A stretch of 64,000 bases of DNA, from NCBI GenBank assembly GCA_945834475.1, contig CAMAHK010000003.1, positions 900-64,899 on the forward strand. Reading direction: 5' to 3'. Positions 6,082 through 43,408 of this stretch are shown piece after piece. Numbering within the stretch: position 1 is the stretch's first letter; each line of letters begins with the position of its first letter. Both the position numbers and the translations under genes were made by a program. The notes under the pieces were generated by a model. The model searched no databases, was not told where the DNA came from, and worked only from the letters and a program-made list of their open reading frames with translations. The stretch comes from an uncultured Verrucomicrobiota bacterium. Its GTDB lineage: Bacteria > Verrucomicrobiota > Kiritimatiellia > RFP12 > UBA1067.

Positions 6082-7555
6082 TCTTCTCCTCTTCAGAAAT
6101 CAAATTCGTACCGTCGTGCGTCCCCGCCGACGGCGCGGTAACAGCCGCAACCTCAGTCTCCTCCGTTTCAGCGCCGCGGGCGAGACGCACCGCGGTACGG
6201 TCTTCGGCCTTCCGCTTCTTCCACTGCGGACCGTACTTCGGATTCTTCTCGACAGCCGAGTAGACGCCGTTCGTAAACGAGACCGCATGACCCGTCGAGA
6301 CGAGCCACTGGAGGTGCTTCTCAAAGTCCGCAATCTCCGCCGGGAACTCCGACTTGTCAAGGCACGGATGCGCATCGAGATACTTCGAAACGGCCGCGAG
6401 CTCGGGAATCGCGTGCTCGGCGTCAAACGGCTTCAATTCGGCCGCGACGACAAACTCGGGACCACGCGCCTCGTTCGCACGGAAGATATTGAGCTTGCGG
6501 TGATGGAATGCGCCGCGGAGAGCGTAGATCATCGCGTACGGTGCGCGGCGTTCGGCCGCAATCGCGTCGTTGACCGCCCAGACGAGCGGCTTCGCCGGCG
6601 ACGTCGCCGCGACGCTCGCCTTGATCATGAGGTGCTTCGGCTTGTCGACAAGCGACGGCAGGACGACACGCTTGAACTCGCCCTCGGCCTGTTCACGCGT
6701 CAGTTGCGCCGCGCCTTCGGTCTCGGCCTCGCCCTTGTGGAAGAAGACCGTCTTCTTGACCGCGCTCGCCCGCCACGCTTCGATGGACTCCGTATCCCGC
6801 ACCATCTCGATGCGGGAGCGATAGTCCGCCTCGGACATGTTCGGATACTTCGTGCGGATCATCTTCTTGACGACCGCGTTGAACTCATGGATGTTCGGCG
6901 GCCCCAAGAGGATGCCCGAAAGCCCGCACTTCGCGACGCACGTGAAATTGCCCTTCGGCGGCTCGCAGTCGATCTCCTTCGCATCGTAGTACTCGCCGAG
7001 ATGCGCCGAGAGGACGTGTTCGAGAACATCCTCTTCCTTCGTGGACGCAAAACCGCAGACTTTACACTGATAAAAAGAGGTTGAGGTCGAAGGTTGAGGT
7101 TGAGAACCCTGTGGAGCCTTAGGAGAAATCTTCAGGAGGATCGACTCGGGATTGTCGAGGAAGAAGTACGCGAGGTCCTTGAGCTTGTACGCGTGCGTGT
7201 CGCCCTGGATCTTGCGGATGATCGTGCCAAGCGCCTTCGTCTCGGGCAGGATCTTCACTTCGCACGCGAGCGGCTGCGGCTTCTCGAAACTCGGACGGTC
7301 GAAGCGCGGCTTATCGCCAAAAGACTTGCGCGGACGGTCCCCCATCGGCTTGCGCTCGCCAAAGGGCTTTCGGCCCTCGCCAAAGTTCCGACGCGGCTTG
7401 TCGCCACCGCCAAAACCCGAACGCGGCCGATCGTCCTCAACGCGTCCACGGCCGCCCTCGACCGTGACCTTCTCGTCTTTCTTGGCCCAAGCCGGCGTAA
7501 AGTCAAACGCCCCCAGAGAACCCAAGTCAATCGCATTAGTCTTTTCTTCGCTCAT
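6050..7555 (-). CDS. Hypothetical protein with an Arg/Gly/Pro-rich N-terminus and one classical C2H2 zinc finger
   Basis: I prefer the internal ATG at 7555 (MSEEKTNAIDL). The RG-rich stretch reads GGGDKPRRNFGEGRKPFGERKPMGDRPRKSFGDKPRFDRP. The finger is YQCKVCGFASTKEEDVLEHVLSAH (about 7001-7066). The 3' end overlaps the pheT start by about 30 nt. Confidence 0.7.
   Translation of the reverse strand: MSEEKTNAIDLGSLGAFDFTPAWAKKDEKVTVEGGRGRVEDDRPRSGFGGGDKPRRNFGEGRKPFGERKPMGDRPRKSFGDKPRFDRPSFEKPQPLACEVKILPETKALGTIIRKIQGDTHAYKLKDLAYFFLDNPESILLKISPKAPQGSQPQPSTSTSFYQCKVCGFASTKEEDVLEHVLSAHLGEYYDAKEIDCEPPKGNFTCVAKCGLSGILLGPPNIHEFNAVVKKMIRTKYPNMSEADYRSRIEMVRDTESIEAWRASAVKKTVFFHKGEAETEGAAQLTREQAEGEFKRVVLPSLVDKPKHLMIKASVAATSPAKPLVWAVNDAIAAERRAPYAMIYALRGAFHHRKLNIFRANEARGPEFVVAAELKPFDAEHAIPELAAVSKYLDAHPCLDKSEFPAEIADFEKHLQWLVSTGHAVSFTNGVYSAVEKNPKYGPQWKKRKAEDRTAVRLARGAETEETEVAAVTAPSAGTHDGTNLISEEEKNDEVAPVVAE
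6108..6198. repeat. Class-1 palindromic element, 91-bp doublet (in the C2H2 protein gene)
   Basis: GTACCGTCGTGCGTCCCCGCC ... GCCGCGGGCGAGACGCACCGCGGTAC. The spacer (GGCGCGGTAACAGCCG ... CTCCGTTTCAGCGCC) resembles the spacer of the 92-bp subfamily. It is translated as RTAVRLARGAETEETEVAAVTAPSAGTHDGT. Confidence 0.8.
7077..7104. repeat. GAGGTT-type simple repeat inside the C2H2 protein gene
   Basis: GAGGTTGAGGTCGAAGGTTGAGGTTGAG on the plus strand, translated on the minus strand as QPQPSTSTS. Confidence 0.7.
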
Positions 7556-10021: not shown

Positions 10022-10921
10022 ATGATCGTTTCCGTCATCATTCCCGTCTACAACGTCGCCCCGTATCTCCGCGCCGGCCTTGATTCGGTGCGCACCGCAG
10101 CCGAAAACCAGTCCGCGGCGACAGTCGAGATCATCTGTGTCGACGACGGGTCGACGGACGGGTCGACCGGAATCCTCGACACATCCCCCTCGCCTGCCGT
10201 CCCGCACACGCTCAAGGTCCTGCATTGTCCCCACCGGGGCGTTTCCGCCGCGCGCAACGCCGGATTAGACGCTGCCACGGGCGATCTCATCCTCTTTGCC
10301 GATCCCGACGACATGGTTGCTGCCGATTGGATCGCGAACCTGATCCGCGCAGCGGCCAACGCCGATCTCGTCTGGACGGGATACGCGCAGGACGGCATCC
10401 GCCACGAGCCCTCCGACGTCAACCAGACTTACGTCGGCGACGCAATCCGTCGCCGTCTCTGGCGCGCCGTCTTCGGCTACCGACTGCGCGATCTCGCGAA
10501 ACTGTTCCTTCCCGGAGGACTTTGGACGCGCTGCAAACGCGAAATGGCGGGCGTCTGGCGTTGTGCCGTCCGTCGCGAGACCCTTGGAGGTCTCCGCTTT
10601 GACCCAAGCCTGAGTCTTTACGAAGACGCGATGTTCATCACCGAACTGGCGACCCGCGCCCGCCGTCTCGGCGTTGTCGGGGACTGCGGCTATGACTGGC
10701 GCGTTCGCCCGACCGGCGCGATGTCCCGCGAATTCCGCGAGCGCGCCGTCGTCCACAAATTCGCCGTCCGCAACGTCCGCGCCCGGATCGACCCGAAGAA
10801 GACCCACTGGCGCGGCACATTCCTGCTCTCGGCTCTTGAGATCCTCAAGACCGCCGGCTTCGCCTGCGCGATCCGTTATCTCACGGGGAAAGACCCCGAC
10901 CTCACTTGCCGCCGAGCTTGA
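10022..10921 (+). CDS. Family 2 glycosyltransferase
   Basis: MIVSVIIPVYNVAPYL ... CVDDGSTDGS ... DPDD pattern typical of GT2. This is the only plus-strand gene I accept. Its 3' end overlaps the convergent gene by 20 nt. Confidence 0.8.
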   Translation: MIVSVIIPVYNVAPYLRAGLDSVRTAAENQSAATVEIICVDDGSTDGSTGILDTSPSPAVPHTLKVLHCPHRGVSAARNAGLDAATGDLILFADPDDMVAADWIANLIRAAANADLVWTGYAQDGIRHEPSDVNQTYVGDAIRRRLWRAVFGYRLRDLAKLFLPGGLWTRCKREMAGVWRCAVRRETLGGLRFDPSLSLYEDAMFITELATRARRLGVVGDCGYDWRVRPTGAMSREFRERAVVHKFAVRNVRARIDPKKTHWRGTFLLSALEILKTAGFACAIRYLTGKDPDLTCRRA

Positions 10922-13900
10922 GCCAGACGCGGAGAAGTTCCGAGTCGCTCCAGGCCTGAGCCGTGCAGCCCTTCTGGGCATGCGGCGCATCGCCGTCGGC
11001 GTTCTCGCTCACGTGACAGAGACAGCCCGCGTTGACGTTCTCGACGGCCGTCGCGAGAAGCTGCAGCGCAACCTCCTTCGAACAGCTCTTCGTCATCGCC
11101 AGGGCCTCCGCATAGAGCGGGAACGGCCACGCCCAGATCGTCCCGTTGTGATACGCGGGCTTCCGGCATGTGTCCTCGTCGCCCGCATAGACGCCGCGAT
11201 ACATCGGATGCTCCGCGTTGAGCGAACGGACTCCGCCCGGCACGAGCAGTTCCTCGGTCGCCGCGAGGATCGACTTGTCGTCGAGCACGCCCAGCGTGAT
11301 GAGAAAGAGCTGGTTCGGACGGATCGTGTCCTCCGGCTTCGCCAAAGCCGCAGGCTCCCCATTCGGTGCCGCGAGACAATCGTAGTACCCCGTACCGCGG
11401 TGCGTCTCGCCCGCGGCGTCTCCAAGCCCCTCTCCCCCAACCTTGAAATACTTCGTGACGCTGGCCAGCGCCTTCTCGGCGAGTTCCGTGCGTCCGAGGA
11501 AGCGAAGCGCCGAGATCCAGAGCGCCTGAATCTCGACCGGATACCCGATGCGCGGCGTACAGGCTGGATAGTTCGTATCCATCCACGTGAAGTGCGACGG
11601 CGACCAGATCAGCGCCGACTCCGGATCCATGTGAATCCCGTTCGGCGTCCCCGAGATGTAATGGTCGACAATCGACTCGCAAGTCTTTTTGAGCGTGGAT
11701 ATAGTACCCGGCGTGACCTCACGCCGAGGCGTGGTATCAGCCGACTGACTCAAGGCTTCCGTGTCAGCGCCACGGCGTGAGGTCACGCCGGGTACTTGAG
11801 ACACCTCTTGCACACAGCGGATGAACCAGAGCTGGGCGTCGGTCGTGTCGCGGTTGCCGGCCGTCTTGCCGTAGATGATGTTGGGAAGCGTCCCGTTCTC
11901 CTCGAACGCGGCGAACGCCTGAAGGATGCGCACGGAGTCCTCGATCTTCCCCGCGGCAATCATACCGCGCATGAAGATGAACGTGTCGCGTCCCCAGTCG
12001 AGGAACCACGGATACCCCGCGATCACGGTTTTCAAATCATCGCGTTTGACAATGAAGAGGTCCAGCGACTGCGCGAGCGCAGTCGCAAAAGACACCGTAC
12101 CGCGAGCGGCCTTCGGCTGCGTCGCTTCGCTCGGCTGTTTCTCGGCCGCGGCACTCTCCAAGACGCCTGTTGCCACGCCGCCGGCGAGGACGCTCGGCGG
12201 TACGGTGTTCAGCCCCCCTAGTATCTCCGCCGTCTCGCCGACCTTGAGGTCGGCCGAGATCCAGCCGGGCGAATAGAGGTCGCCCGAGCCGTCCTGTCCG
12301 CGCGCCGCCTCCTCGGCGTGCGACACGTTGTAGATCCACTCGGGCTCGTGGTGGTACGCGCCATTGACGACGCGCATCGCGAACGTCTCCCCATACGGCG
12401 CGAAGTCAAACCCCGCCGACGTACCCGCAGCCGTACCGCGGTGCGTCTCGCCCGAACAGCCGAGCGAAGCGAGACAGCCGCAGGCCGCGTCTCCAAGCCC
12501 ATCCCCGTTACCCGCCGCGGGCGAGACGCACCGCGGTACGGTTTTCTCCCTGAACAGCCCTTCCGCCCCACCATACGCCTTCGTCGTCGCATGGAAGCTG
12601 CGCCATTCGATGTCGGGACGGAACACAAGGCGAACCTGATCGCCGACATCGTCCTCGCCTGCGTCGCCGCGCGTCACGGTAAGCCGCGCGACATTGCCCT
12701 TCTCCAGCGCGAGTGTGAACGCAAAGGCAGTCTCACGGCCCATGCCGCACGGCACACGGAAGTCCCACGTCGCGAAGCGTCCCGCCGGATCGGCCGTAAA
12801 GCGCGTCACACACTTCATGTCGAGTTCGCGCACATAGCCCTCGCGCTGCAGCCAGCACCGTGTGCGCGCCCAGAGGTTGAGACGGTCGGACGGTACATCG
12901 GGATTCGGATTCGCCGCGAGCGTCGCGTCGTACTGGCTCGCAATCGAGCCCCAGGCGACGCGCAGCTGCGCCGCGGCCCCCTCGCCGTTCGAGAGGATCG
13001 TGCGCATCAGCGGATTCTTGCGCACCTCCTCACCCATCAGCGACAGCTTCACCTTCGCCTGACGCGAGCGCGGCGGGATCAAGAGTTCGGAGACCGTCCG
13101 CGTCGTCGCATGCGCGGCATAGACCGTCATTTTGAAGACCAGTCGCCGACACGCCGTGCCGTCGCCCTTATAGTGCGGCGCGTCAAAGGTAATGAGGTTG
13201 AGGTTAGAGGTTGAGAGATTGGTTGAAGACGAGAGGTTGGCGGGGACGGAGCGATAGGCGCGGATCGTCTTGCCGGTCGCCGGATCGACAATCTCGAGGC
13301 GGAAACGATGCGGCGCCGAAACCTCCAGAAGCTGGTTCTCCGGCACGCAGACCTGCCGCCGCGCGTCCCGCGGATACACCCAATGGAAGGTGTGACGAGT
13401 ACCCGGCGTGACCTCACGCCGAGGCGCGGTAACAGCCGACTGACTCAAGACCTCCGTGTCAGCGCCACGGCGTGAGGTCACGCCGGGTACTTCTTCCACG
13501 CACAGCACTTCGCCCGGCTTGAGGAACTCCTTGCCCGACAGGTAGCGCCGTTCTCCCGTGATGAGATCGGTGACCTCACCCCCCGGGAACTTCGCGGCGT
13601 CCCACGCGATCGTCGCGCCATTGGCGCAGTCGAGATTGGCGAGAATGAGAACCTTGTCAGCGCCTGTCGCCGAGACGGCGACGGTACGGACGACGGCAAG
13701 CGTATTACCCTCGCCGCGCGTCACGACCTCGAGGTGACTCGCGTTCGCGAAGCTCGGATGTGTCGAGAGAATCGCATTGAGCCGCGAAATGAGCGGCACC
13801 ATGTTGTTGGACGCGCCCCAGTTGAGGTCGTTCTTGCCGTGGACGTCGATCTTCTCGGTCGCGTACCACTCGACGCCATTCGCCATACCCCACGCGCCCT

Positions 13901-15116
13901 GCCACGAGAGCAGCGCGGCGAGCTGGACGCGCAAGCGCGCGTAAGTGACGCCGCTCTTCGCGAGGCGGTCGTTGTCGTGCGTTTCGGCGAAGTGGACGAG
14001 CGTGCCGAACTTCTCGGACCGCGCAATCGCTCCGGGCAGATACCACTCGAACGCGCCGCGGTCGTAGGTCTGGAAGATTTCCGAATACGCCCAGTCGAGA
14101 TTCGCCTCGGCGAGAAGCGCGTCCGTCACCTCGAGCTTGCCGCCGAGGCCCTCGAGCATGAAGACCGTGTCGGGATACTCCTCGCGGACACGCGCGACGA
14201 TGTATTCCCAGGTCTTGAGCGGGATCATGTACCCCGCGTCACAGCGGAAGCCGTCCACGCCATTCCGGCACCAGAAGAGGAAGACATCCGCCATGTAAGC
14301 GCGGAGTTCCGGCTTCGAATAGTCGAGCTCGACAAGGTCCGCCCACTTGACACCCCACGCGCCCGGCGAATGGAAGCGTCCGTCGGCCTCATGCGAGAAC
14401 CAGTCCGGATGATGCGTCTGCAGCGTCGATGCCCAGCCCGTGTGGTTCGCCGGCAGGTCAACGAAGAAGAGTCCCTCGCGGGCATGGACGGCGTCCACAA
14501 GCTCGCGGAACTGATCGAGCGGCGTCGCGAACTCGTCGAACTCGGCCATCGCCGGATCGACCGAGAAGAAGTCCGTCGCGGCGAACGGACACCCATACTC
14601 GCCCATCACCGCGTACGTCGTCGGCACGGGGAACGGCGGCAGCGTCTGAATGATCTTGAAGCCCATGTCGCCCATGATGAAGTCGAGCTTGCGGGCGACG
14701 GCACGGAACGAGCCAAACTGACGCGGGAAGACCGTGTAGATCGAGTTGTTCGTGCGCGTGTCGGCGCTCTCGACCTTGACGTGCGTGTTCGGACCCTCCG
14801 GCCACTCGGGTACGTTCGAGCCCTCCGGGAAGAAACAAGCCTTGCCAGAGAAGATACCGACCTCATTGAGCGGAATCGTCACGTGAAAGACGCCCGGCGC
14901 CGTCTCGGCCATCGGGATATCGGTCCACGCCCGCGCGAGCGGCGTCTCGCCGCGCTCGGTCTCGGCGATGATCTCGCGACGGCGGATGCGCGCGTTGCCG
15001 AGGTTCGTACGGAACGCGGCGCGTCCCTTCCGCGGCGCATCGAGGGTCAGGGTCACGTCAAGGGAATCACCGCGCCATTTGAGAATGAAGTCGTTAGTCG
15101 AGGGGAACTGGGTCAT
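10902..15116 (-). CDS. Bifunctional-type glycogen debranching enzyme (N-terminal GH13 alpha-amylase-family domain plus C-terminal GH133 amylo-alpha-1,6-glucosidase/GDE_C domain)
   Basis: 1404-aa ORF. GH13 signatures are GFRCDAGYMIP, FMLEGLGG and FAETHDN. GDE_C signatures are GYPWFLDWGRDTFI and GTIWAWPFPLY. It is interrupted in-frame by at least five palindromic repeat copies and one simple-repeat array. Confidence 0.85.
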   Translation of the reverse strand: MTQFPSTNDFILKWRGDSLDVTLTLDAPRKGRAAFRTNLGNARIRRREIIAETERGETPLARAWTDIPMAETAPGVFHVTIPLNEVGIFSGKACFFPEGSNVPEWPEGPNTHVKVESADTRTNNSIYTVFPRQFGSFRAVARKLDFIMGDMGFKIIQTLPPFPVPTTYAVMGEYGCPFAATDFFSVDPAMAEFDEFATPLDQFRELVDAVHAREGLFFVDLPANHTGWASTLQTHHPDWFSHEADGRFHSPGAWGVKWADLVELDYSKPELRAYMADVFLFWCRNGVDGFRCDAGYMIPLKTWEYIVARVREEYPDTVFMLEGLGGKLEVTDALLAEANLDWAYSEIFQTYDRGAFEWYLPGAIARSEKFGTLVHFAETHDNDRLAKSGVTYARLRVQLAALLSWQGAWGMANGVEWYATEKIDVHGKNDLNWGASNNMVPLISRLNAILSTHPSFANASHLEVVTRGEGNTLAVVRTVAVSATGADKVLILANLDCANGATIAWDAAKFPGGEVTDLITGERRYLSGKEFLKPGEVLCVEEVPGVTSRRGADTEVLSQSAVTAPRREVTPGTRHTFHWVYPRDARRQVCVPENQLLEVSAPHRFRLEIVDPATGKTIRAYRSVPANLSSSTNLSTSNLNLITFDAPHYKGDGTACRRLVFKMTVYAAHATTRTVSELLIPPRSRQAKVKLSLMGEEVRKNPLMRTILSNGEGAAAQLRVAWGSIASQYDATLAANPNPDVPSDRLNLWARTRCWLQREGYVRELDMKCVTRFTADPAGRFATWDFRVPCGMGRETAFAFTLALEKGNVARLTVTRGDAGEDDVGDQVRLVFRPDIEWRSFHATTKAYGGAEGLFREKTVPRCVSPAAGNGDGLGDAACGCLASLGCSGETHRGTAAGTSAGFDFAPYGETFAMRVVNGAYHHEPEWIYNVSHAEEAARGQDGSGDLYSPGWISADLKVGETAEILGGLNTVPPSVLAGGVATGVLESAAAEKQPSEATQPKAARGTVSFATALAQSLDLFIVKRDDLKTVIAGYPWFLDWGRDTFIFMRGMIAAGKIEDSVRILQAFAAFEENGTLPNIIYGKTAGNRDTTDAQLWFIRCVQEVSQVPGVTSRRGADTEALSQSADTTPRREVTPGTISTLKKTCESIVDHYISGTPNGIHMDPESALIWSPSHFTWMDTNYPACTPRIGYPVEIQALWISALRFLGRTELAEKALASVTKYFKVGGEGLGDAAGETHRGTGYYDCLAAPNGEPAALAKPEDTIRPNQLFLITLGVLDDKSILAATEELLVPGGVRSLNAEHPMYRGVYAGDEDTCRKPAYHNGTIWAWPFPLYAEALAMTKSCSKEVALQLLATAVENVNAGCLCHVSENADGDAPHAQKGCTAQAWSDSELLRVWLKLGGK
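11392..11429. repeat. Class-1 element, solo arm plus GTCTCCAAGCCC tail (in the debranching enzyme gene)
   Basis: GTACCGCGGTGCGTCTCGCCCGCGGCGTCTCCAAGCCC, translated as GLGDAAGETHRGT. Confidence 0.85.
11704..11795. repeat. Class-1 related 92-bp nested palindrome, copy 1 (in the debranching enzyme gene)
   Basis: Perfect 23-nt terminal inverted repeats GTACCCGGCGTGACCTCACGCCG / CGGCGTGAGGTCACGCCGGGTAC. Each arm is itself a palindrome (GGCGTGA-CC-TCACGCC). It is translated as VPGVTSRRGADTEALSQSADTTPRREVTPGT. Confidence 0.9.
12097..12203. repeat. Class-1 element, 107-bp doublet, type 2 (in the debranching enzyme gene)
   Basis: GTACCGCGAGCGGCCTTCGGCTGCGTCGCTTCGCTCGGCTG ... GCCGGCGAGGACGCTCGGCGGTAC. 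The first 55 nt are identical to the copy at 15374. Confidence 0.9.
12433..12539. repeat. Class-1 element, 107-bp doublet, type 1 (in the debranching enzyme gene)
   Basis: GTACCGCGGTGCGTCTCGCCC ... GGGCGAGACGCACCGCGGTAC are perfect 21-nt inverted termini. The internal module CAGCCGAGCGAAGCGAGACAGCCGCAGGCCGC is the inverse of the module in the type 2 copies. Confidence 0.9.
13194..13240. repeat. GAGGTT-type simple repeat inside the debranching enzyme gene
   Basis: GAGGTTGAGGTTAGAGGTTGAGAGATTGGTTGAAGACGAGAGGTTGG, translated as ANLSSSTNLSTSNLNL. Confidence 0.7.
13399..13490. repeat. 92-bp nested palindrome, copy 2 (in the debranching enzyme gene)
   Basis: It matches the copy at 11704-11795 at 88 of 92 positions by hand alignment. 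It is translated as VPGVTSRRGADTEVLSQSAVTAPRREVTPGT. Confidence 0.9.
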
Positions 15117-21789: not shown

Positions 21790-23112
21790 TCATTCACGCC
21801 CGTTTGACATCGTTTTCGGCAAAACCAAACTGACACTCGCGTTTTCGGGACGGAAGATTTCCGCCGCCACGGCCTGGACGTCGGCGGCTGTCACGCGCTT
21901 GATGGCCTCGACCTGTTCTTGCGGCATCACCAGGCGGTCAAACGAGAGCGCGGTGTTGCCGTAGAAGAAGAGCTTCGACGTCACCTTCTCGTGCGAGAGC
22001 CGGAAATTGCCAACAAGGAACTCCTTGATGCGCTTGAGCTCCGTCACCGAGACACGCTTCGCCACCAGCTTCTGCAACTCCCGGTCGATCGTCGCACGGG
22101 CCTTGTCGCCCTTCGCGGCGTCGAGTCCCGCCGTGATCGAGAGAAAGCCCGCATCCTGAAAGAACTGCATCCGCGAGGAAATGTCATAACTGAGTCCGCG
22201 CTTCTCGCGCACTTCCTGAAAAAGCCGGCTTGACATGCCACGTCCGAGGATCGCGTCCAGCACCGTCGCCGCGTACTTGCGCTCGTCGTGGATGCCGAAC
22301 GTGCGATACCCGAGCGCGAGCTGCGCCTGATTGACATCCTTGCGCGCGACGACTTCGGGGGTCGGAGGAAGGAGAACTGCGGAAGAAATGTTTTTATTCC
22401 GACGCGACAGGAGTGTCGCGTCCCCGGCTGGCGTGGACAATGGGGACGCGACACTCTTGTCGCGTCGCAACAAAGATTTCCCACCTCTTTCCCCCAGAGC
22501 CCGCGCGACGACGTCAAGCGCCATCTCGGGCTCGAATGCGCCGACGACGACGGCTATCGTGGCCGTCGGCAGGTAGTGCGCCTTGATATACTGGCGCAAG
22601 TCGTCCGGCGTCAGCGGTCCGAGCGACTTCGCACTGCCGGCGACGGGACGCCCGAGAGGATGCTTCGGGAAGAGCGCGGCCTGCAGGTTCTCCATCGCGA
22701 CGCAGTCCGGCTCGTCCGCATACATTTTGATTTCCTCGATCACGACATCCTTCTCGCGTGCGAACTCGTCAGCGGGAATCGTCGCGTTGAGGTACATGTC
22801 GGAAATGATGTCGACCGCCTCCTCCAGATACTCGCTCGGCAAATGCACGAAGTAGCAGGTCGATTCCTCGCCCGTACAGGCGTTGAAGTTGCCGCCACGT
22901 CCTTCGATCGCCCGCGTGATGTCGATCGGGCGCCGCGTGGGCGTCCCCTTGAAAAGCATGTGTTCGATGAAATGCGAAATGCCAGCCGTCTTCGCCGTCT
23001 CATGGCGCGAGCCGGACGCAATGAAGAGTCCGAACGCAACGGACTCCGCTTCACAGGGAACCAGCACGACTCGAAGGCCGTTGGATAGAATGTGTTGCTG
23101 AGGACGATTCAT
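21790..23112 (-). CDS. M16-family (pitrilysin-like) zinc peptidase
   Basis: HFIEHMLFKGT zinc-binding motif (HxxEH) in a 440-aa ORF. It is interrupted by a 68-bp palindromic element at 22400-22467. Confidence 0.9.
   Translation of the reverse strand: MNRPQQHILSNGLRVVLVPCEAESVAFGLFIASGSRHETAKTAGISHFIEHMLFKGTPTRRPIDITRAIEGRGGNFNACTGEESTCYFVHLPSEYLEEAVDIISDMYLNATIPADEFAREKDVVIEEIKMYADEPDCVAMENLQAALFPKHPLGRPVAGSAKSLGPLTPDDLRQYIKAHYLPTATIAVVVGAFEPEMALDVVARALGERGGKSLLRRDKSVASPLSTPAGDATLLSRRNKNISSAVLLPPTPEVVARKDVNQAQLALGYRTFGIHDERKYAATVLDAILGRGMSSRLFQEVREKRGLSYDISSRMQFFQDAGFLSITAGLDAAKGDKARATIDRELQKLVAKRVSVTELKRIKEFLVGNFRLSHEKVTSKLFFYGNTALSFDRLVMPQEQVEAIKRVTAADVQAVAAEIFRPENASVSLVLPKTMSNGRE
22400..22467. 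repeat. Class-2 68-bp nested palindrome (in the M16 peptidase gene)
   Basis: CGACGCGACAGGAGTGTCGCGTCCCC ... GGGGACGCGACACTCTTGTCGCGTCG. Each arm contains GCGACA..TGTCGC. It is translated as RRDKSVASPLSTPAGDATLLSRR. Confidence 0.9.
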
Positions 23113-32168: not shown

Positions 32169-33139
32169 AACCCCATCAGCTTTTTCGCCGCCGCAAATTG
32201 CGCGGACAGATCGACCTTGCGCGATCCGTCGACATAGCCGTCAGCGCGCAAGTTCTCGACGAAGCGACGAAACTTGTGCGAACCCGGATTCAAGTTGTCG
32301 AGCGCCACAACCTCGGCCGAACCAAAGGTACAGGCCTCCGAGAGCATCCCCGTCGACTCGGCCGTCACGTAAAGCCGCTTCGCGAGTTTCACGAACGCCG
32401 GAATCGGATTGAAATGATCCTTCGAATAGAGAAGCTTGTAGTCCCACGGATACGAGTCGATCAGCGCCTCGATCTCCGGCGGCGTCCGGCGCGAGGTTGT
32501 GACACAACGGAGAATTGGCGAATTGCCGAATTGGCGAATTGCCGAATCGGCGAAGATTGCATCCAATTCGCGTTTCATCCAGTCGACGGACATCGTCGAG
32601 CACTTATTGGGGCCGCCGACGATCACGGCGACGAGCGGACGCGCCGCGACCTGGTCGGCGGTGAAGCCGCTGTGGTTGTAGAACGCCGCGACGCCCTTCT
32701 CGTAGAACGCCGCATCGGCCGCGACGAGGTTCGCCGGAATCTCGATCACGTTCGGCGCCGCCGCGGGACGGTCGAACGCCGGCGCGAGCACGCAGTCGAA
32801 CGACGCGATGTCATACCCGCGCGGATAGAGAACGGCGCCGCACGTGACGCCCAGCTTCTTCGCCAGCGCCTTCGCGGCATAGAAGGTTCCCGACCCGGTG
32901 CCGATCACGGCGACAAACGCCGTACTGCGGCGCGTCTCGCCCGCGACGCTCTCCCACCCCCTCACCAGACCAAGCGCCCTAATGCCCAGGCGGTCGCACG
33001 CATACGAGAGCGCCTTGTGGAACTTGGACTTGAACTGCACGGGAACGATCTCGAACTCACAACCAAGCGCACGGGCAAAGGCCTTGGACTGGTTTTCGTG
33101 TCCGGCCTTGCCGTCAGTCAGAATCAGAACCTTAGACAT
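32165..33139 (-). CDS. ELM1/DUF1022-family protein (putative glycosyltransferase-like)
   Basis: I prefer the ATG at 33139 (MSKVLILTDGKAGHENQSKAFARALG). The track start is 33157. It contains the octamer-repeat insertion at 32511-32560. The family call is from memory. Confidence 0.65.
   Translation of the reverse strand: MSKVLILTDGKAGHENQSKAFARALGCEFEIVPVQFKSKFHKALSYACDRLGIRALGLVRGWESVAGETRRSTAFVAVIGTGSGTFYAAKALAKKLGVTCGAVLYPRGYDIASFDCVLAPAFDRPAAAPNVIEIPANLVAADAAFYEKGVAAFYNHSGFTADQVAARPLVAVIVGGPNKCSTMSVDWMKRELDAIFADSAIRQFGNSPILRCVTTSRRTPPEIEALIDSYPWDYKLLYSKDHFNPIPAFVKLAKRLYVTAESTGMLSEACTFGSAEVVALDNLNPGSHKFRRFVENLRADGYVDGSRKVDLSAQFAAAKKLMGL
32511..32560. repeat. Octamer tandem array (AATTGGCG/AATTGCCG)n (in the ELM1-like gene)
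   Basis: AGAATTGGCGAATTGCCGAATTGGCGAATTGCCGAATCGGCGAAGATTGC with 8-nt periodicity. It is translated as IFADSAIRQFGNSPILR. Confidence 0.85.
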
Positions 33140-35445: not shown

Positions 35446-37962
35446 TTAGAAAAACGTCATCTGCCCTGGGAGTTCCGAAAGTCGCTTGCGGGGCTTCTTC
35501 ACGACCTTGGGTCGGTTCACATCGAGTTCATTCGCCTCGAGGTTCTTGAGAATCTCCTCGGCGCGGCCGACGACCTCCTGCGGGAGCCCCGCCATCGCGC
35601 CGACGTGAATGCCGAAGCTCTTCTCGGCGATGCCCGGGACGATTCGCCGCAGGAACACGACGCGTCCGCCCTCGTCCTTCACCTTCACCGTGTAGTTCTT
35701 GATGCCCGGGAACGTGTCCGCGAGGTCGGTGAGCTCGTGGTAGTGCGTCGCGAAGAGCGTCTTCGCCTTCGCGCTCGCCTTGCCGTGCAGATACTCCGCG
35801 ACCGACCAGGCGATCGAGATGCCGTCGAAGGTCGAGGTGCCGCGGCCGATCTCGTCCAGGACGATCAGCGACTTCGGCGTCGCATTGTTGAGGATGTTCG
35901 CCGTCTCCTGCATCTCGACGAGGAACGTCGAACGTCCGCGCGCGAGGTCGTCCCCGGCGCCGATGCGCGTGAAGACACGGTCCAGAACGCCGAGCCGCAT
36001 CGCCGCCGCCGGCACGAACGAGCCCATCTGCGCCATCACCGCGATTGTCGCAACCTGACGGATGTACGTCGACTTGCCGGCCATGTTCGGCCCCGTGATG
36101 AGGATGATCTGGTCCGTCGTCGTGTTGAGGAACGACGAGTTCGGCACGAACGGCTCCGCATCGGGGAGCTGCTCGATAATTGGATGGCGTCCGTCGACGA
36201 TTTCAAGAACATCCGAGTCGTCGACCGTCGGCCGCACGTATCCCGCCGCCAGCGCACGGTCCGCCAGCGCCAGCGTCGCGTCGAGCGCCCCGAGCGCAAG
36301 CGCTGTCTCCTGAATCTCGACCGTCTTTGCCGCAATCGTCTCGAGGACGCCGCGAAAGAGCGTCTGCTCGATCGCGATCGCCTTGTCCTGCGCCCCGACG
36401 ACCTTGCGCTCGTATTCCTTCAGCTCCTCCGTGACGTACTGTTCGCCCGTCGTCAGCGTGCGGCGCCGCACATAGTCGGCCGGCACCTGGGGGATGAACG
36501 ACTTCGGCACTTCGATCATATAGCCGAACGCCGGCACGCGCTTCACCTTGAGCTTCGAAATGCCCGTGCGCTGCTGTTCGCGCGCCTGGTACTCGGCAAG
36601 CCACTGATGCCCTTCCGCCGCAATCGCGCGCAGCTCGTCAAGCTCTCCATTGTAGCCCGAGGCAATGTACCCGCCGTCCGCGAGCATCACCGCAGGGTCT
36701 TCGCAGATGGCCTTGTCGATGAGATCGACAAGAGCGGATTGTGGCGTTAGATTTTGAACAAGCGATCTGGAGATCGCTTCCCCTGTACCGCGGTGCGTCT
36801 CGCCCGCGGCACTCTCCAAGCCCCCCAAAATCTCCGGGATCGGCCGCAAGCTCGCCGCGAGGGCCTTCACATCGCGCGGATTCGCGCGGAAGGCGTCGAC
36901 CTTCTGGATGAGCCGCTCCAAATCCCTGACCCCCGACAGCAATGTGCGCAGCGACGCGAGCGCTCCGCGGTTCTCGACAAACGCCTGCACGGCGTCGAGC
37001 CGCGCGTTGACGTCCGCCGCCCGTGCGAGCGGCCGCAGAATCCAGTTGCGCATCGTGCGCGCACCCATCGGCGTCTTCGTGACGTCGAGAACGCCGAGAA
37101 GCGACGCCTCCTTCGGCACGTCGCCGACCGGAATGAGCTGCAGGTGGCGGAGCGTTCCAACGTCGAGAACCAGCACGTCGTCCGACTGCCGCAGCTGAAT
37201 CTTGCGCACGTGCTCGAGCGAATGATGGAGCGTCGTCCCGACATAATAGAGAAGCGCCCCCGCCGCCGAGATGAGATCGGTCTTGTCCGTAAGTCCGAAG
37301 CCATCAAGCGACAGGACCTTGAAGTGCCGCGTCAGGCAATCGAGTGCCGCATCAACCGAAAACGTCCAACTCTCAATGGGCGTCGCCTGGCGCGACAAGA
37401 GTGTCGCGCCCCCGTTATCCGTCCCAACCGGGGACGCGACACTCTTGTCGCGTCGGTCAGGAACAATCACCTCTGCCGGATGATACCGCTCCAGCGCCTC
37501 GTCGAGCTTTTCCTGCGCGGCGAACTGTTCGACGATGAACTCGCCCGTCGAGAGATCGAGAAGCGCGAGCCCGAGACCCGACACCGCCGCGGCGTACGTG
37601 TTCGTCGTCTCGTCGAGAAGCCCGTCCTCCGTCACCGTACCCGGCGTCACGATGCGCGTCACTTCGCGGCGGACAAGTCCCTTCGCCGTCTTCGGATCCT
37701 CGACCTGATCGCAGAGAGCCGCCGTCTTGCCGGCACGGATCAGCTTCGCGAGATACGAGTTGAGCGCGTGATACGGCACGCCGCACATCGGCTGGTCACC
37801 GCGGTGCGTGAGCGTCGCGCCTAGGATCGGCGAGGCGATCACCGCGTCCTCGCCGAACATCTCGTAGAAGTCGCCGAGGCGAAACATCACAATGGCCCCC
37901 GCCGGCACCTCGCGCTTGATCGCGAGGTACTGGCGCATCAGCGGTGTCAGTTCGGCGGCCAT
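35446..37962 (-). CDS. mutS: DNA mismatch repair protein MutS
   Basis: 838 aa with TPLMRQYL, GPNMAGKST Walker A, DEIGRGTST and HYHELT. It carries two in-frame repeat insertions (36785-36823 and 37391-37455). Confidence 0.97.
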   Translation of the reverse strand: MAAELTPLMRQYLAIKREVPAGAIVMFRLGDFYEMFGEDAVIASPILGATLTHRGDQPMCGVPYHALNSYLAKLIRAGKTAALCDQVEDPKTAKGLVRREVTRIVTPGTVTEDGLLDETTNTYAAAVSGLGLALLDLSTGEFIVEQFAAQEKLDEALERYHPAEVIVPDRRDKSVASPVGTDNGGATLLSRQATPIESWTFSVDAALDCLTRHFKVLSLDGFGLTDKTDLISAAGALLYYVGTTLHHSLEHVRKIQLRQSDDVLVLDVGTLRHLQLIPVGDVPKEASLLGVLDVTKTPMGARTMRNWILRPLARAADVNARLDAVQAFVENRGALASLRTLLSGVRDLERLIQKVDAFRANPRDVKALAASLRPIPEILGGLESAAGETHRGTGEAISRSLVQNLTPQSALVDLIDKAICEDPAVMLADGGYIASGYNGELDELRAIAAEGHQWLAEYQAREQQRTGISKLKVKRVPAFGYMIEVPKSFIPQVPADYVRRRTLTTGEQYVTEELKEYERKVVGAQDKAIAIEQTLFRGVLETIAAKTVEIQETALALGALDATLALADRALAAGYVRPTVDDSDVLEIVDGRHPIIEQLPDAEPFVPNSSFLNTTTDQIILITGPNMAGKSTYIRQVATIAVMAQMGSFVPAAAMRLGVLDRVFTRIGAGDDLARGRSTFLVEMQETANILNNATPKSLIVLDEIGRGTSTFDGISIAWSVAEYLHGKASAKAKTLFATHYHELTDLADTFPGIKNYTVKVKDEGGRVVFLRRIVPGIAEKSFGIHVGAMAGLPQEVVGRAEEILKNLEANELDVNRPKVVKKPRKRLSELPGQMTFF
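36785..36823. repeat. Class-1 element, solo arm (in mutS)
   Basis: GTACCGCGGTGCGTCTCGCCCGCGGCACTCTCCAAGCCC, translated as GLESAAGETHRGT. Confidence 0.85.
37391..37455. repeat. Class-2 nested palindrome, second copy (in mutS)
   Basis: CGCGACAAGAGTGTCGCGCCCC ... GGGGACGCGACACTCTTGTCGCGTCG. The spacer looks inverted relative to the copy at 22400. It is translated as RRDKSVASPVGTDNGGATLLSRQ. Confidence 0.9.
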
Positions 37963-42586: not shown

Positions 42587-42622
42587 GCAATTCGCCAATT
42601 CGTCAATTCGTCAATTCGCCAA
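42587..42622. repeat. Octamer tandem array (GCCAATTC/GTCAATTC)n, intergenic between the S1 gene stop and the proC start
   Basis: GCAATTCGCCAATTCGTCAATTCGTCAATTCGCCAA is the reverse complement of the unit at 32511. Confidence 0.85.
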
Positions 42623-43408
42623 TTACAACTTATCAAACGCTCCCGTCCCGAAGCCCGCGTTCTTCTTCGCGTTGTCCTTCATCCACGCGGCGACCTCCTC
42701 GGCGGACTTCGCGGCCGCCTCGTCCTCGGGCGTACGCCTGAACGTCCGCGCCATGCACTCCTTGCGCGAAAGCGTCACCTTGCCCTCCTCGCGGTCGATG
42801 TGCAGGATCTTCACCGTAATCGCATCGCCGCTCTTGAGAATCGTGTTGAGGTCGTCGACGCGCTCCCACGCGACTTCACGCGCGGGGACGAGTCCCTCGA
42901 CGCCGCCGAGGTCGACGAACGCGCCGAAGTTCATGACGCGCGTCACCGTGCCGTTCAGCGTCTCGCCTTCGGTGAGCTCGTTGAGGACGGCCTCCTTGAG
43001 CGCCTCGGCCTGGAGCTCCAGGAGCTGACGGCGAGAGACGACGACGTTGAGTCCGCGGTCGTCGACCGAGTAATCGGTGACGAGAAACTCGAACTTGCGT
43101 CCGACGTACTCCGCGGCGTCCTTCTTGAACTTGTCGATCTGGCTAAAGGGACAGAACGCGCGCTGGCCGGCGATCGTCACTTCGTAACCGCCCTTCGTCT
43201 CCTTGTCGACGACGCCCGCAATCGCCTCGCCCTGCTCGAACGCCGTCTTGATCGCCGCGTTGTCATTCGAGTCGACGACGAGCGTCTTCTTCTCGGGGCG
43301 CACGAGGGACTTGTCCTCGTTGAACGCCTTGCCGAACTTGTAACCCTTGCGGATGCCGCCGAACTGAGCGTCAAGCATCGCACCGAAATCGAAAGAATTA
43401 TTATCCAT
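42623..43408 (-). CDS. S1 RNA-binding domain protein (two S1 repeats)
   Basis: GEAIAGVVDKETKGGYEVTIAGQRAFCPFSQ and GETLNGTVTRVMNFGAFVDLGGVEGLVP S1 signatures. Confidence 0.8.
   Translation of the reverse strand: MDNNSFDFGAMLDAQFGGIRKGYKFGKAFNEDKSLVRPEKKTLVVDSNDNAAIKTAFEQGEAIAGVVDKETKGGYEVTIAGQRAFCPFSQIDKFKKDAAEYVGRKFEFLVTDYSVDDRGLNVVVSRRQLLELQAEALKEAVLNELTEGETLNGTVTRVMNFGAFVDLGGVEGLVPAREVAWERVDDLNTILKSGDAITVKILHIDREEGKVTLSRKECMARTFRRTPEDEAAAKSAEEVAAWMKDNAKKNAGFGTGAFDKL

Follow-up and report, generated by a model that had tools for sequence, protein, structure and literature searches.

In-frame hairpin dimers of a putative REP family in an M16 peptidase gene and in mutS of an uncultured Kiritimatiellia bacterium

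Two tagged hairpin dimers in protein-coding genes

The stretch of DNA analyzed here, referred to as the window, comprises 64,000 nucleotides of contig CAMAHK010000003.1 (assembly GCA_945834475.1) from an uncultured Verrucomicrobiota bacterium of the class Kiritimatiellia. Two of its genes, encoding an M16 zinc peptidase and the mismatch repair protein MutS, each contain a quasi-perfect palindrome of 68 nt, termed copy A and copy B, respectively (Table 1). Both are laid out alike: a first hairpin unit and a C-rich 5-mer lie on one side of a 16-nt spacer and a G-rich 5-mer and the second hairpin unit on the other, with the G-rich tags (GGGGA or GGGGG) facing the spacer. The repeating unit is a single 22-nt hairpin plus its 5-nt tag, and the 68-nt palindrome is the head-to-head dimer of this unit. 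A preliminary description made from the letters of the window had spoken of a nested palindrome; that structure is present and is here refined to a dimer of a tagged hairpin. The unit stem CGCGACA/TGTCGCG reaches 9 bp in three of the four units and encloses the loops GGAG, AGAG or CTCT. Short stem-loops of this kind (22 nt, a stem of 7-9 bp and a loop of 4 nt, as compared with 20-40 nt and 5-13 bp for REP units in general) and their arrangement as head-to-head inverted pairs forming a larger hairpin, which is seen in both copies, are features of repetitive extragenic palindromic (REP) elements.

The 23-nt arm GGGGACGCGACACTCTTGTCGCG occurs four times in the 64 kb when up to three mismatches are allowed, exactly at copies A and B, as compared with 0.01 occurrences in shuffled sequences, and none of 100 shuffles attained four. 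Each arm is a hairpin of its own, with a 7-bp extension around the core CA-RGAG-TG; hairpins with this core and at least four further paired bases are likewise found four times in the window, all of them at copies A and B (0.015 in shuffles). The copies are 88% reverse-complementary to each other across 66 nt. As their spacers agree better in reverse complement (10 of 16 positions) than in direct comparison (5 of 16), they lie in opposite element orientation. Inverted termini, a palindrome within each arm and opposite orientation of the copies had all been put forward in the preliminary description and are borne out by these figures. Structure prediction, also proposed there, yields a stable single-strand fold for the copies (dG -54 to -59 kcal/mol, z -7.8 to -10.4). 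Rfam returned no family match at gathering score anywhere in the window. A further class of repeats in the window is characterized by a GTAC signature, which copies A and B indeed lack. The two families had been called unrelated. This holds for their sequences, which exhibit no similarity, whereas the GTAC class by eye also looks like tag plus hairpin and may be of the same kind.

Both copies are read in frame on the minus strand. Copy A specifies the peptide RRDKSVASPLSTPAGDATLLSRR (M16 residues ~216-237), located in the linker that joins the M16 half to the M16_C half, and copy B the peptide RRDKSVASPVGTDNGGATLLSRQ (MutS residues ~170-191) in domain II, the connector, for which the Pfam MutS_II match extends over residues 130-252. 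The inserts give RDKSVASP...ATLLSR in 21-23 amino acids, the frame relative to the arms being identical, and 11 of the 12 frames across both copies are free of stop codons. The in-frame location in an M16 peptidase and in MutS, as first read from the letters, agrees with the domain matches of the minus-strand open reading frames (ORFs), and the early remark that both copies encode the same peptide is accounted for by arm symmetry together with the shared frame. The inserts are not an assembly artefact since the same proteins recur with them in other assemblies: identical insert-bearing proteins are present in ERZ8810629 (MutS) and ERZ27292453 (M16), and near-identical versions of both in ERZ13405076. 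Pig-gut samples are the source of ERZ8810629 and ERZ13405076, as well as of the assembly ERZ978717. One contig with the genes of the window originates from a pig metagenome, and a MutS relative with 80% identity (P0059) belongs to a metagenome-assembled genome (MAG) of the Kiritimatiellae.

Table 1. Host genes, components of the two hairpin dimers and the stretch missing from a shorter M16 allele (positions in the window)
Feature	Position	Strand	Length	Sequence	Remarks
Host gene 1, M16 zinc peptidase	21790-23112	minus	440 aa		Peptidase_M16 and M16_C domains
Copy A	22400-22467		68 nt	CGACGCGACAGGAGTGTCGCGTCCCC-GGCTGGCGTGGACAAT-GGGGACGCGACACTCTTGTCGCGTCG	head-to-head dimer in M16 peptidase gene
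Copy A, unit 1 hairpin	22401-22422			GACGCGACA-GGAG-TGTCGCGTC	tag TCCCC (reverse complement of GGGGA), 22421-22425
Copy A, spacer	22426-22441		16 nt	GGCTGGCGTGGACAAT	
Copy A, unit 2 hairpin	22445-22466			GACGCGACA-CTCT-TGTCGCGTC	tag GGGGA, 22442-22446
Stretch missing in M16 orthologue P0123/L096 (94% identical)	22408-22470	minus	63 nt		exactly 21 codons
Host gene 2, MutS	35446-37962	minus	838 aa		MutS domains I-V
Copy B	37389-37456		68 nt	GGCGCGACAAGAGTGTCGCGCCCCC-GTTATCCGTCCCAACC-GGGGACGCGACACTCTTGTCGCGTCGG	head-to-head dimer in mutS
Copy B, unit 1 hairpin	37389-37410			GGCGCGACA-AGAG-TGTCGCGCC	tag CCCCC (reverse complement of GGGGG), 37409-37413
Copy B, spacer	37414-37429		16 nt	GTTATCCGTCCCAACC	
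Copy B, unit 2 hairpin	37433-37454			GACGCGACA-CTCT-TGTCGCGTC	tag GGGGA, 37430-37434

Unit number and the nature of the insertion sites

The insertions are lineage-specific, as had been anticipated: most MutS and M16 orthologues lack the segment, even at 80-90% identity, and the refuting check named in the preliminary description turns out in its favor. For MutS, 22 sequences with 81-97% identity were aligned. The region of the insert in domain II is a length-variable spot, where the shortest relatives read ...PNDDNRWTFS. It faces E. coli residues ~176-203, which are gapped in the alignment, and in most orthologues this stretch of domain II is absent or different. Three units are present in P0002 (94% identical), two in the protein of the window, one in P0003 and P0004 (with a GGAAT loop) and none in P0005; an alignment at the DNA level backs these counts unit by unit. 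The M16 site behaves similarly. Two units are found in the window and in P0121 (99% identical), one in P0122, P0128 and P0133, three in P0126 (72% identical) and a half-unit remnant in P0123. The three units of P0126 carry the loop variant GGAAT/ATTCC, and P0122 has, in addition to its single unit, lost 27 nt of host sequence. All variants in unit number, at the MutS as well as at the M16 site, preserve the reading frame.

The shorter M16 allele of P0123 deserves closer description. Its missing stretch (Table 1) is flanked by a 3-nt microhomology, TGT on the coding strand, and the allele retains TGTCGCGTCGG, the 3' half of one hairpin unit. Because half a unit is retained, the allele is a deletion product and not a virgin site.

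Two side observations concern the units at these sites. The loop variant ACAGGAATGT/ACATTCCTGT occurs in the MutS copy of a relative (L093, 10510-10529) and in the M16 copies of L097 (1082-1181), while the window has ACA(A/G)GAGTGT. Provided that L093 and L097 share one genome, this looks like a concerted change at two unlinked orthologous sites. Furthermore, the host DNA directly after the M16 dimer (22378-22407, coding strand ...TCGCGTCGGAATAAAAACATTTCTTCC) encodes SRRNKNISS and resembles a decayed, A/T-enriched hairpin unit. By eye about half of the bases are identical between the stretches for RRNKNISS and RRDKSVAS, and the stretch may be the trace of a unit older than the dimer.

The M16 site lies in a linker. 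When the peptidase was compared with the solved structure 3hdi, two aligned blocks were obtained, and residues 198-252 of the protein from the window remained unaligned as the linker between the halves. AlphaFold predicts coil for residues 210-273, at a pLDDT of less than 50, but the model is of modest quality (mean pLDDT 64) and residues 291-330 are likewise low-confidence coil; the predicted coil at the insert lends weak support to a tolerant site. Across 120 orthologues (P0121-P0240) the linker, taken between VGxF(D/E) and QAQLALGY, varies between 47 and 75 amino acids, and in most of them it holds other palindrome-like peptide families, namely GEAASSPL...SGEDAASPLSG, GRGLRTRRGVPRTSRP, GRGLRTRRGVPRTSRPAEDN or GRAVPARRGGRG..GATRPT. 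Judged from these peptides, the M16 linker is a hot spot at which different repeat families recur.

One rival explanation is that the palindromes are selected as functional RNA or translation elements, in that an mRNA hairpin of -55 kcal/mol at a domain boundary would slow the ribosome, to the benefit of co-translational folding, or control mRNA processing or stability. This explanation would be in line with the position of the M16 insert exactly between the protein halves, with some palindrome-derived peptide family in the linkers of most of the 120 orthologues, with the high stability of the hairpins and with reports that REPs are active at the RNA level in other bacteria (PMC3733652). On the other hand, many orthologues do without the element, including close ones such as P0123 and P0005, the number of units varies freely, and several repeat families at one site are also expected where a site is merely permissive. 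We therefore regard a selected RNA function as improbable.

Other palindromes in the window are recorded here as separate observations. The GTAC-tagged repeat is present at a second position in mutS (36781-36832, residues ~377-394 in domain III) as CCCTGTACCGCGGTGCGTCTCGCCCGCGGCAC, which specifies ...AAGETHRGTG.... This position is again a length-variable spot, where relatives have the quite different palindrome-like peptides TQGHREAGAQPQTPTATPCLCASVF and KDAKTTKNDGRPCDLCVLCGF. With a GTAC repeat and a hairpin dimer both in mutS, one gene hosts two repeat families. The minus-strand ORF at 10902-15116, a 1404-aa protein of the glycogen-debranching type (Alpha-amylase, GDE_N, GDE_C), runs uninterrupted through two palindromes of 95 nt that are 96% identical (AGTACCCGGCGTGACCTCACGCCG...) and several units of the GTAC class; the repeats lie at 11388-11439, 11703-11797, 12106-12214, 12431-12550 and 13398-13492 and suggest that this gene, too, carries multiple palindromic inserts in frame. 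Short arrays of AATTGGCG/AATTGCCG units at 32509-32547 and 42587-42624 are mutually inverted and 91% complementary.

The hairpin in other genomes and genes

A scan for the 18-nt hairpin CGCGACACTCYTGTCGCG, covering one genome per species, returned at least 79 loci. Many single matches in unrelated genomes are probably due to chance. Among the matches listed, no contig was recognizably from the organism of the window, and several genomes contain numerous copies, the 5' tag being constant within each genome. "Candidatus Hatepunaea meridiana" of the Fibrobacteres-Chlorobi-Bacteroidetes (FCB) group has at least ~20 loci with the tag AGTAGA and the MAG CAYWKU01 at least ~10 with the tag GGTAGG. Also among the matches listed, MAGs of Verrucomicrobiales and Luteolibacter combine the hairpin with AAGGAG(G/C/T), and a rumen "Lentisphaerae" MAG has the GGGGA tag of the window. 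In 706 kb of fetched loci, we found 47 further hairpins in which the core CA-YTCY-TG is flanked by other, perfectly complementary stems, as opposed to none in shuffled sequences. Since the core is kept while the stems are compensated, it is the hairpin structure and not sequence alone that is conserved; as far as such sequence comparison goes, REP sub-families, whose stem changes compensate each other, show this pattern. A metagenome scan with tag plus hairpin gave 11 loci, none of them from the MutS or M16 sites, and a scan of viral contigs gave no match.

Dimers in coding sequence are not confined to the two host genes of the window. An in-frame heterodimer is present in an ABC-F ATPase (L054; among metagenome loci, L084 and L088-L090); its partner unit has GCGGCA/TGCCGC as stem, and translation of the second arm proceeds in a different frame (SGKSAASP...GTRHSCRV). 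An 868-aa protein from a Verrucomicrobiales MAG (L033) contains GEATLLSP...ARDKSVAAP in frame, with the arms in reverse order. The spacers of the M16, MutS and ABC-F dimers have GGACAAT/GGATAAC in common, GGACAAT itself occurring in the spacers of both copy A and L084, and this common motif suggests that the dimer is copied as a unit.

These cases bear on two further explanations. The first holds that RDKSVASP...ATLLSR, with its 21-23 amino acids, is a selected protein module, a linear motif or flexible linker that has spread because of its usefulness. The same peptide indeed occurs in two unrelated proteins and in the same frame relative to the arms. A shared peptide, however, follows automatically from the symmetry of the DNA if the frames coincide, for which the chance is one in three. 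In the ABC-F copies one arm is read differently (GTRHSCRV), L033 presents the arms in reverse order, unit number is variable and half units are retained. In addition, no protein family with this peptide emerged among 1.84 billion representative proteins when these were searched with a profile of 30 columns: there were two matches, both of them frames of repeated short motifs and probably translated repeat DNA. A query with 70 aa of concatenated insert peptides had no match at E≤10, a search so insensitive that it did not recover the window's own proteins either. A selected module is very unlikely on these grounds.

The second explanation dispenses with a dedicated transposase that recognizes the hairpin. 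The palindromes would then be MITEs (miniature inverted-repeat transposable elements) of the DDE type, or they would arise locally by template switching and be homogenized by gene conversion. Long inverted termini, the change of unit number through local duplication and deletion and the failure of the searches in the window to reveal a transposase would all be compatible with such an origin. Neither copy, however, is bordered by a target-site duplication, as judged from the flanks and from comparison with shorter alleles; this is as expected of REP elements and fits transposition of the HUH type, not of the DDE type. The 22-nt tagged hairpin, moreover, also occurs singly and in heterodimers, and template switching cannot explain the same tagged hairpin at many unlinked loci in several genomes. 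Membership among DDE-type MITEs was rejected, given that target-site duplications are absent, the unit is single or heterodimeric and no parent insertion sequence was seen. Overall, we attach little probability to this second explanation.

Some further repeats were noticed in the genomes that hold the hairpin. In CAYWKU01 (L014, L017, L024, L072, L078 and L079) a second repeated hairpin, GCCCGGCAGGAGTGCCGGGC, lies beside the GGTAGG-CGCGACA... units; it shares the CA-GGAG-TG centre with the GGTAGG-tagged units but not their stem. At a contig end, L005 contains two copies in direct orientation, spaced 56 nt apart. A clustered regularly interspaced short palindromic repeat (CRISPR) array was considered for these two units and set aside in view of at least ~10 dispersed single copies in the same genome. 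In the Verrucomicrobiales MAG JBDNIL01 (L008, L018, L022, L038 and L062) the hairpin lies within a repeat of at least 100 nt, ...TTCCTCGAAT..CCGCCGGGGAAGAACAAGGAGG-hairpin-CGGCTAGCCCGGTCGGGC..., and appears there as part of a larger composite element. The predicted 230-aa protein P0241, from the set of representative proteins, is made up of repeated GGATLLSR, ARHCCRAG and RRDIRVAQG motifs; it seems to be a spurious ORF that spans several related REP units clustered in another genome.

Interpretation and comparison with known systems

Taken together, copies A and B are probably two head-to-head dimers of a REP family of the GTAG kind with a degenerate tag, similar to REP doublets forming hairpins (REPINs) or bacterial interspersed mosaic elements (BIMEs), that are tolerated in coding loops. 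A GTAG tetranucleotide in front of the hairpin is the signature of REP elements recognized by REP-associated tyrosine transposases (RAYTs). The unit would consist of a hairpin (stem of 7-9 bp, loop of 4 nt) preceded by a G-rich tag of 5 nt, and an inverted pair would also fold as one long hairpin. For the copies in the window we infer that a Y1 (HUH) tyrosine transposase, a RAYT, recognizes and cuts the single-stranded hairpin plus tag and that this enzyme, encoded by a single-copy gene elsewhere, spreads the repeats in trans without target-site duplication; mobilization by a RAYT is deduced from the kind of element. A copy inserted into a coding sequence would persist only when the length that it adds is a multiple of three, when it is free of stop codons and when it occupies a loop or linker that tolerates it. 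All of this applies to copies A and B, and the dimers can be tolerated in variable loops because they lack stop codons and comprise a multiple of three bases. RDKSVASP...ATLLSR would most simply be a by-product of translating the palindrome and not a selected protein module. Once resident, the palindromes would be unstable: slippage or recombination would duplicate and delete units, and of the results only those in frame would persist.

Several observations weigh against this reading as a REP family. The tag in the window is GGGG(A/G), where the GTAG superfamily has GTAG or a degenerate form such as GYRG or GTGG. The identical hairpin is preceded by AGTAGA or GGTAGG in two other genomes and, in Verrucomicrobiales, by GGAG; the putative membership in the superfamily is concluded from the fact that the same hairpin carries GTAG in other genomes. 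Within 64 kb of the present genome there are two dimers, i.e. four units, both of them genic, and multi-copy status is seen in other genomes only. No clean empty site was found at either gene, the shortest M16 allele keeping half a unit, and the changes observed are expansion and contraction of units only, with no de novo insertion. A Y1 transposase was not detected in the window by Pfam, either among 20 of the larger ORFs outside 25-48 kb, which were scanned up to ~58.8 kb, or in the precomputed annotations for 25-48 kb. Nor was one found by tblastn with the RAYT-like protein from the contig of a relative (L093). The latter, a protein of 277 aa, is encoded at 6368-7201 of that contig, 2.8 kb upstream of mutS, and reaches 31.5 bits with the Y1_Tnp model (cutoff 23); with NF047646 REP_Tyr_transpos its score is 62 bits, below the NCBIfam cutoff of 80. 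Its flanks contain none of the hairpins described here. A cognate RAYT gene flanked by the same REPs, as is typical of REP systems, was thus found neither in the 64-kb window nor in L093.

A more far-reaching variant is that the intragenic dimers are a live REPIN population co-evolving with its transposase and that the palindrome in mutS, with its gain and loss of units between strains, could be a hot spot of instability which modulates mismatch repair. It draws on the seemingly concerted loop variant (GGAAT/ATTCC in place of GGAG/AGAG) in the MutS of P0003/L093 and the M16 peptidase of P0126/L097 and on a hairpin that is common to the FCB group and the Planctomycetes-Verrucomicrobia-Chlamydiae (PVC) superphylum with only the tag changing. 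We consider this variant rather unlikely.

For tolerated REP-type dimers as described above, the basic phenomenon, i.e. in-frame REPs in genes of the PVC superphylum, is already described. Our findings add a Kiritimatiellae gut lineage and the mismatch repair gene mutS to the few cases of in-frame REP-type palindromes in essential genes. The loops that accept palindromes are recurrent hot spots, the resident repeat family differing from relative to relative. In practical terms, inserts of this type make proteins longer, disrupt alignments and can lead annotation as well as homology-based binning astray. The variable number of units and the presence of one hairpin in several phyla provide material for the study of how REP populations persist. 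Two aspects go slightly beyond the published picture, each on the basis of a few sequences: the apparently concerted loop change in both genes of a related lineage and the occurrence of one hairpin across distant phyla with the tag alone changing.

Among known systems, the BIMEs of E. coli with their TnpA-REP/RAYT transposase resemble the dimers of the window in consisting of inverted REP units with short linkers; hairpin plus tag are recognized there, as would be the case for the dimers. Unlike the copies in the window, which reside inside coding sequences, BIMEs are extragenic and mostly located at the 3' ends of genes.

Rickettsia palindromic elements (RPEs) are comparable in that they are selfish palindromes inserted in frame in numerous housekeeping genes, where they add surface peptides without inactivating the protein. 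Classic RPE-1 elements are ~100-150 bp long and AT-rich. In contrast to the elements studied here, RPEs are confined to Rickettsia and RPE-4 and RPE-6 have a CGTC tag; comparison made without alignment to RPE sequences revealed no evident sequence relationship. RPE-4 and RPE-6 are treated as CGTC-tagged REPs and have no known dedicated transposase (PMC3733652). By the criteria of the same study, affiliation with the RPEs was rejected, as CGTC occurs only within the stem of three of the four units and the first stem positions are rich in G/C and not A/T (PMC3733652). A reading of the outer ends of the dimers as CGTC tags was likewise discarded since CGTC belongs to the stem and other genomes do not conserve it.

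The closest counterparts are the GTAG REPs and REPINs, in particular GTAG-17, GTAG-18 and GTAG-19 of Opitutus terrae (PMC3733652; Bertels & Rainey 2011, PMC3116915). In their survey of REPs with GTAG and CGTC tags, Di Nocera, De Gregorio & Rocco 2013 (PMC3733652) reported GTAG families from the PVC superphylum, tags that degenerate in some families (e.g. GTGG in O. terrae) and a predominance of head-to-head dimers with conserved spacers. Intragenic in-frame REPs are most numerous in O. terrae, where they encode 7-30 aa; more than half of intragenic REPs are dimers or groups encoding 20-30 aa, and many reside in genes for DNA synthesis or repair such as uvrA, DNA ligase, dnaE2 and recD (PMC3733652). 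Unlike the O. terrae elements, the copies in the window have the tag GGGG(A/G), which is absent from the degenerate tags listed in that work, and a hairpin and peptides that match nothing in its supplement; their host is a Kiritimatiellae gut MAG, and MutS is not named in the text of that paper (PMC3733652). They share with GTAG REPs and REPINs a hairpin unit with a G-rich end tag of 4-5 nt, inverted dimers whose tags face a short spacer of constant length, sub-families in which stem changes compensate each other, the lack of target-site duplication and a host from the PVC superphylum. As in O. terrae, in-frame singles (7-8 aa) and dimers (15-30 aa) are found in known proteins, DNA repair genes included. 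The elements are therefore best filed as a REP family, or a sub-family with a distinct hairpin, of an already described kind.

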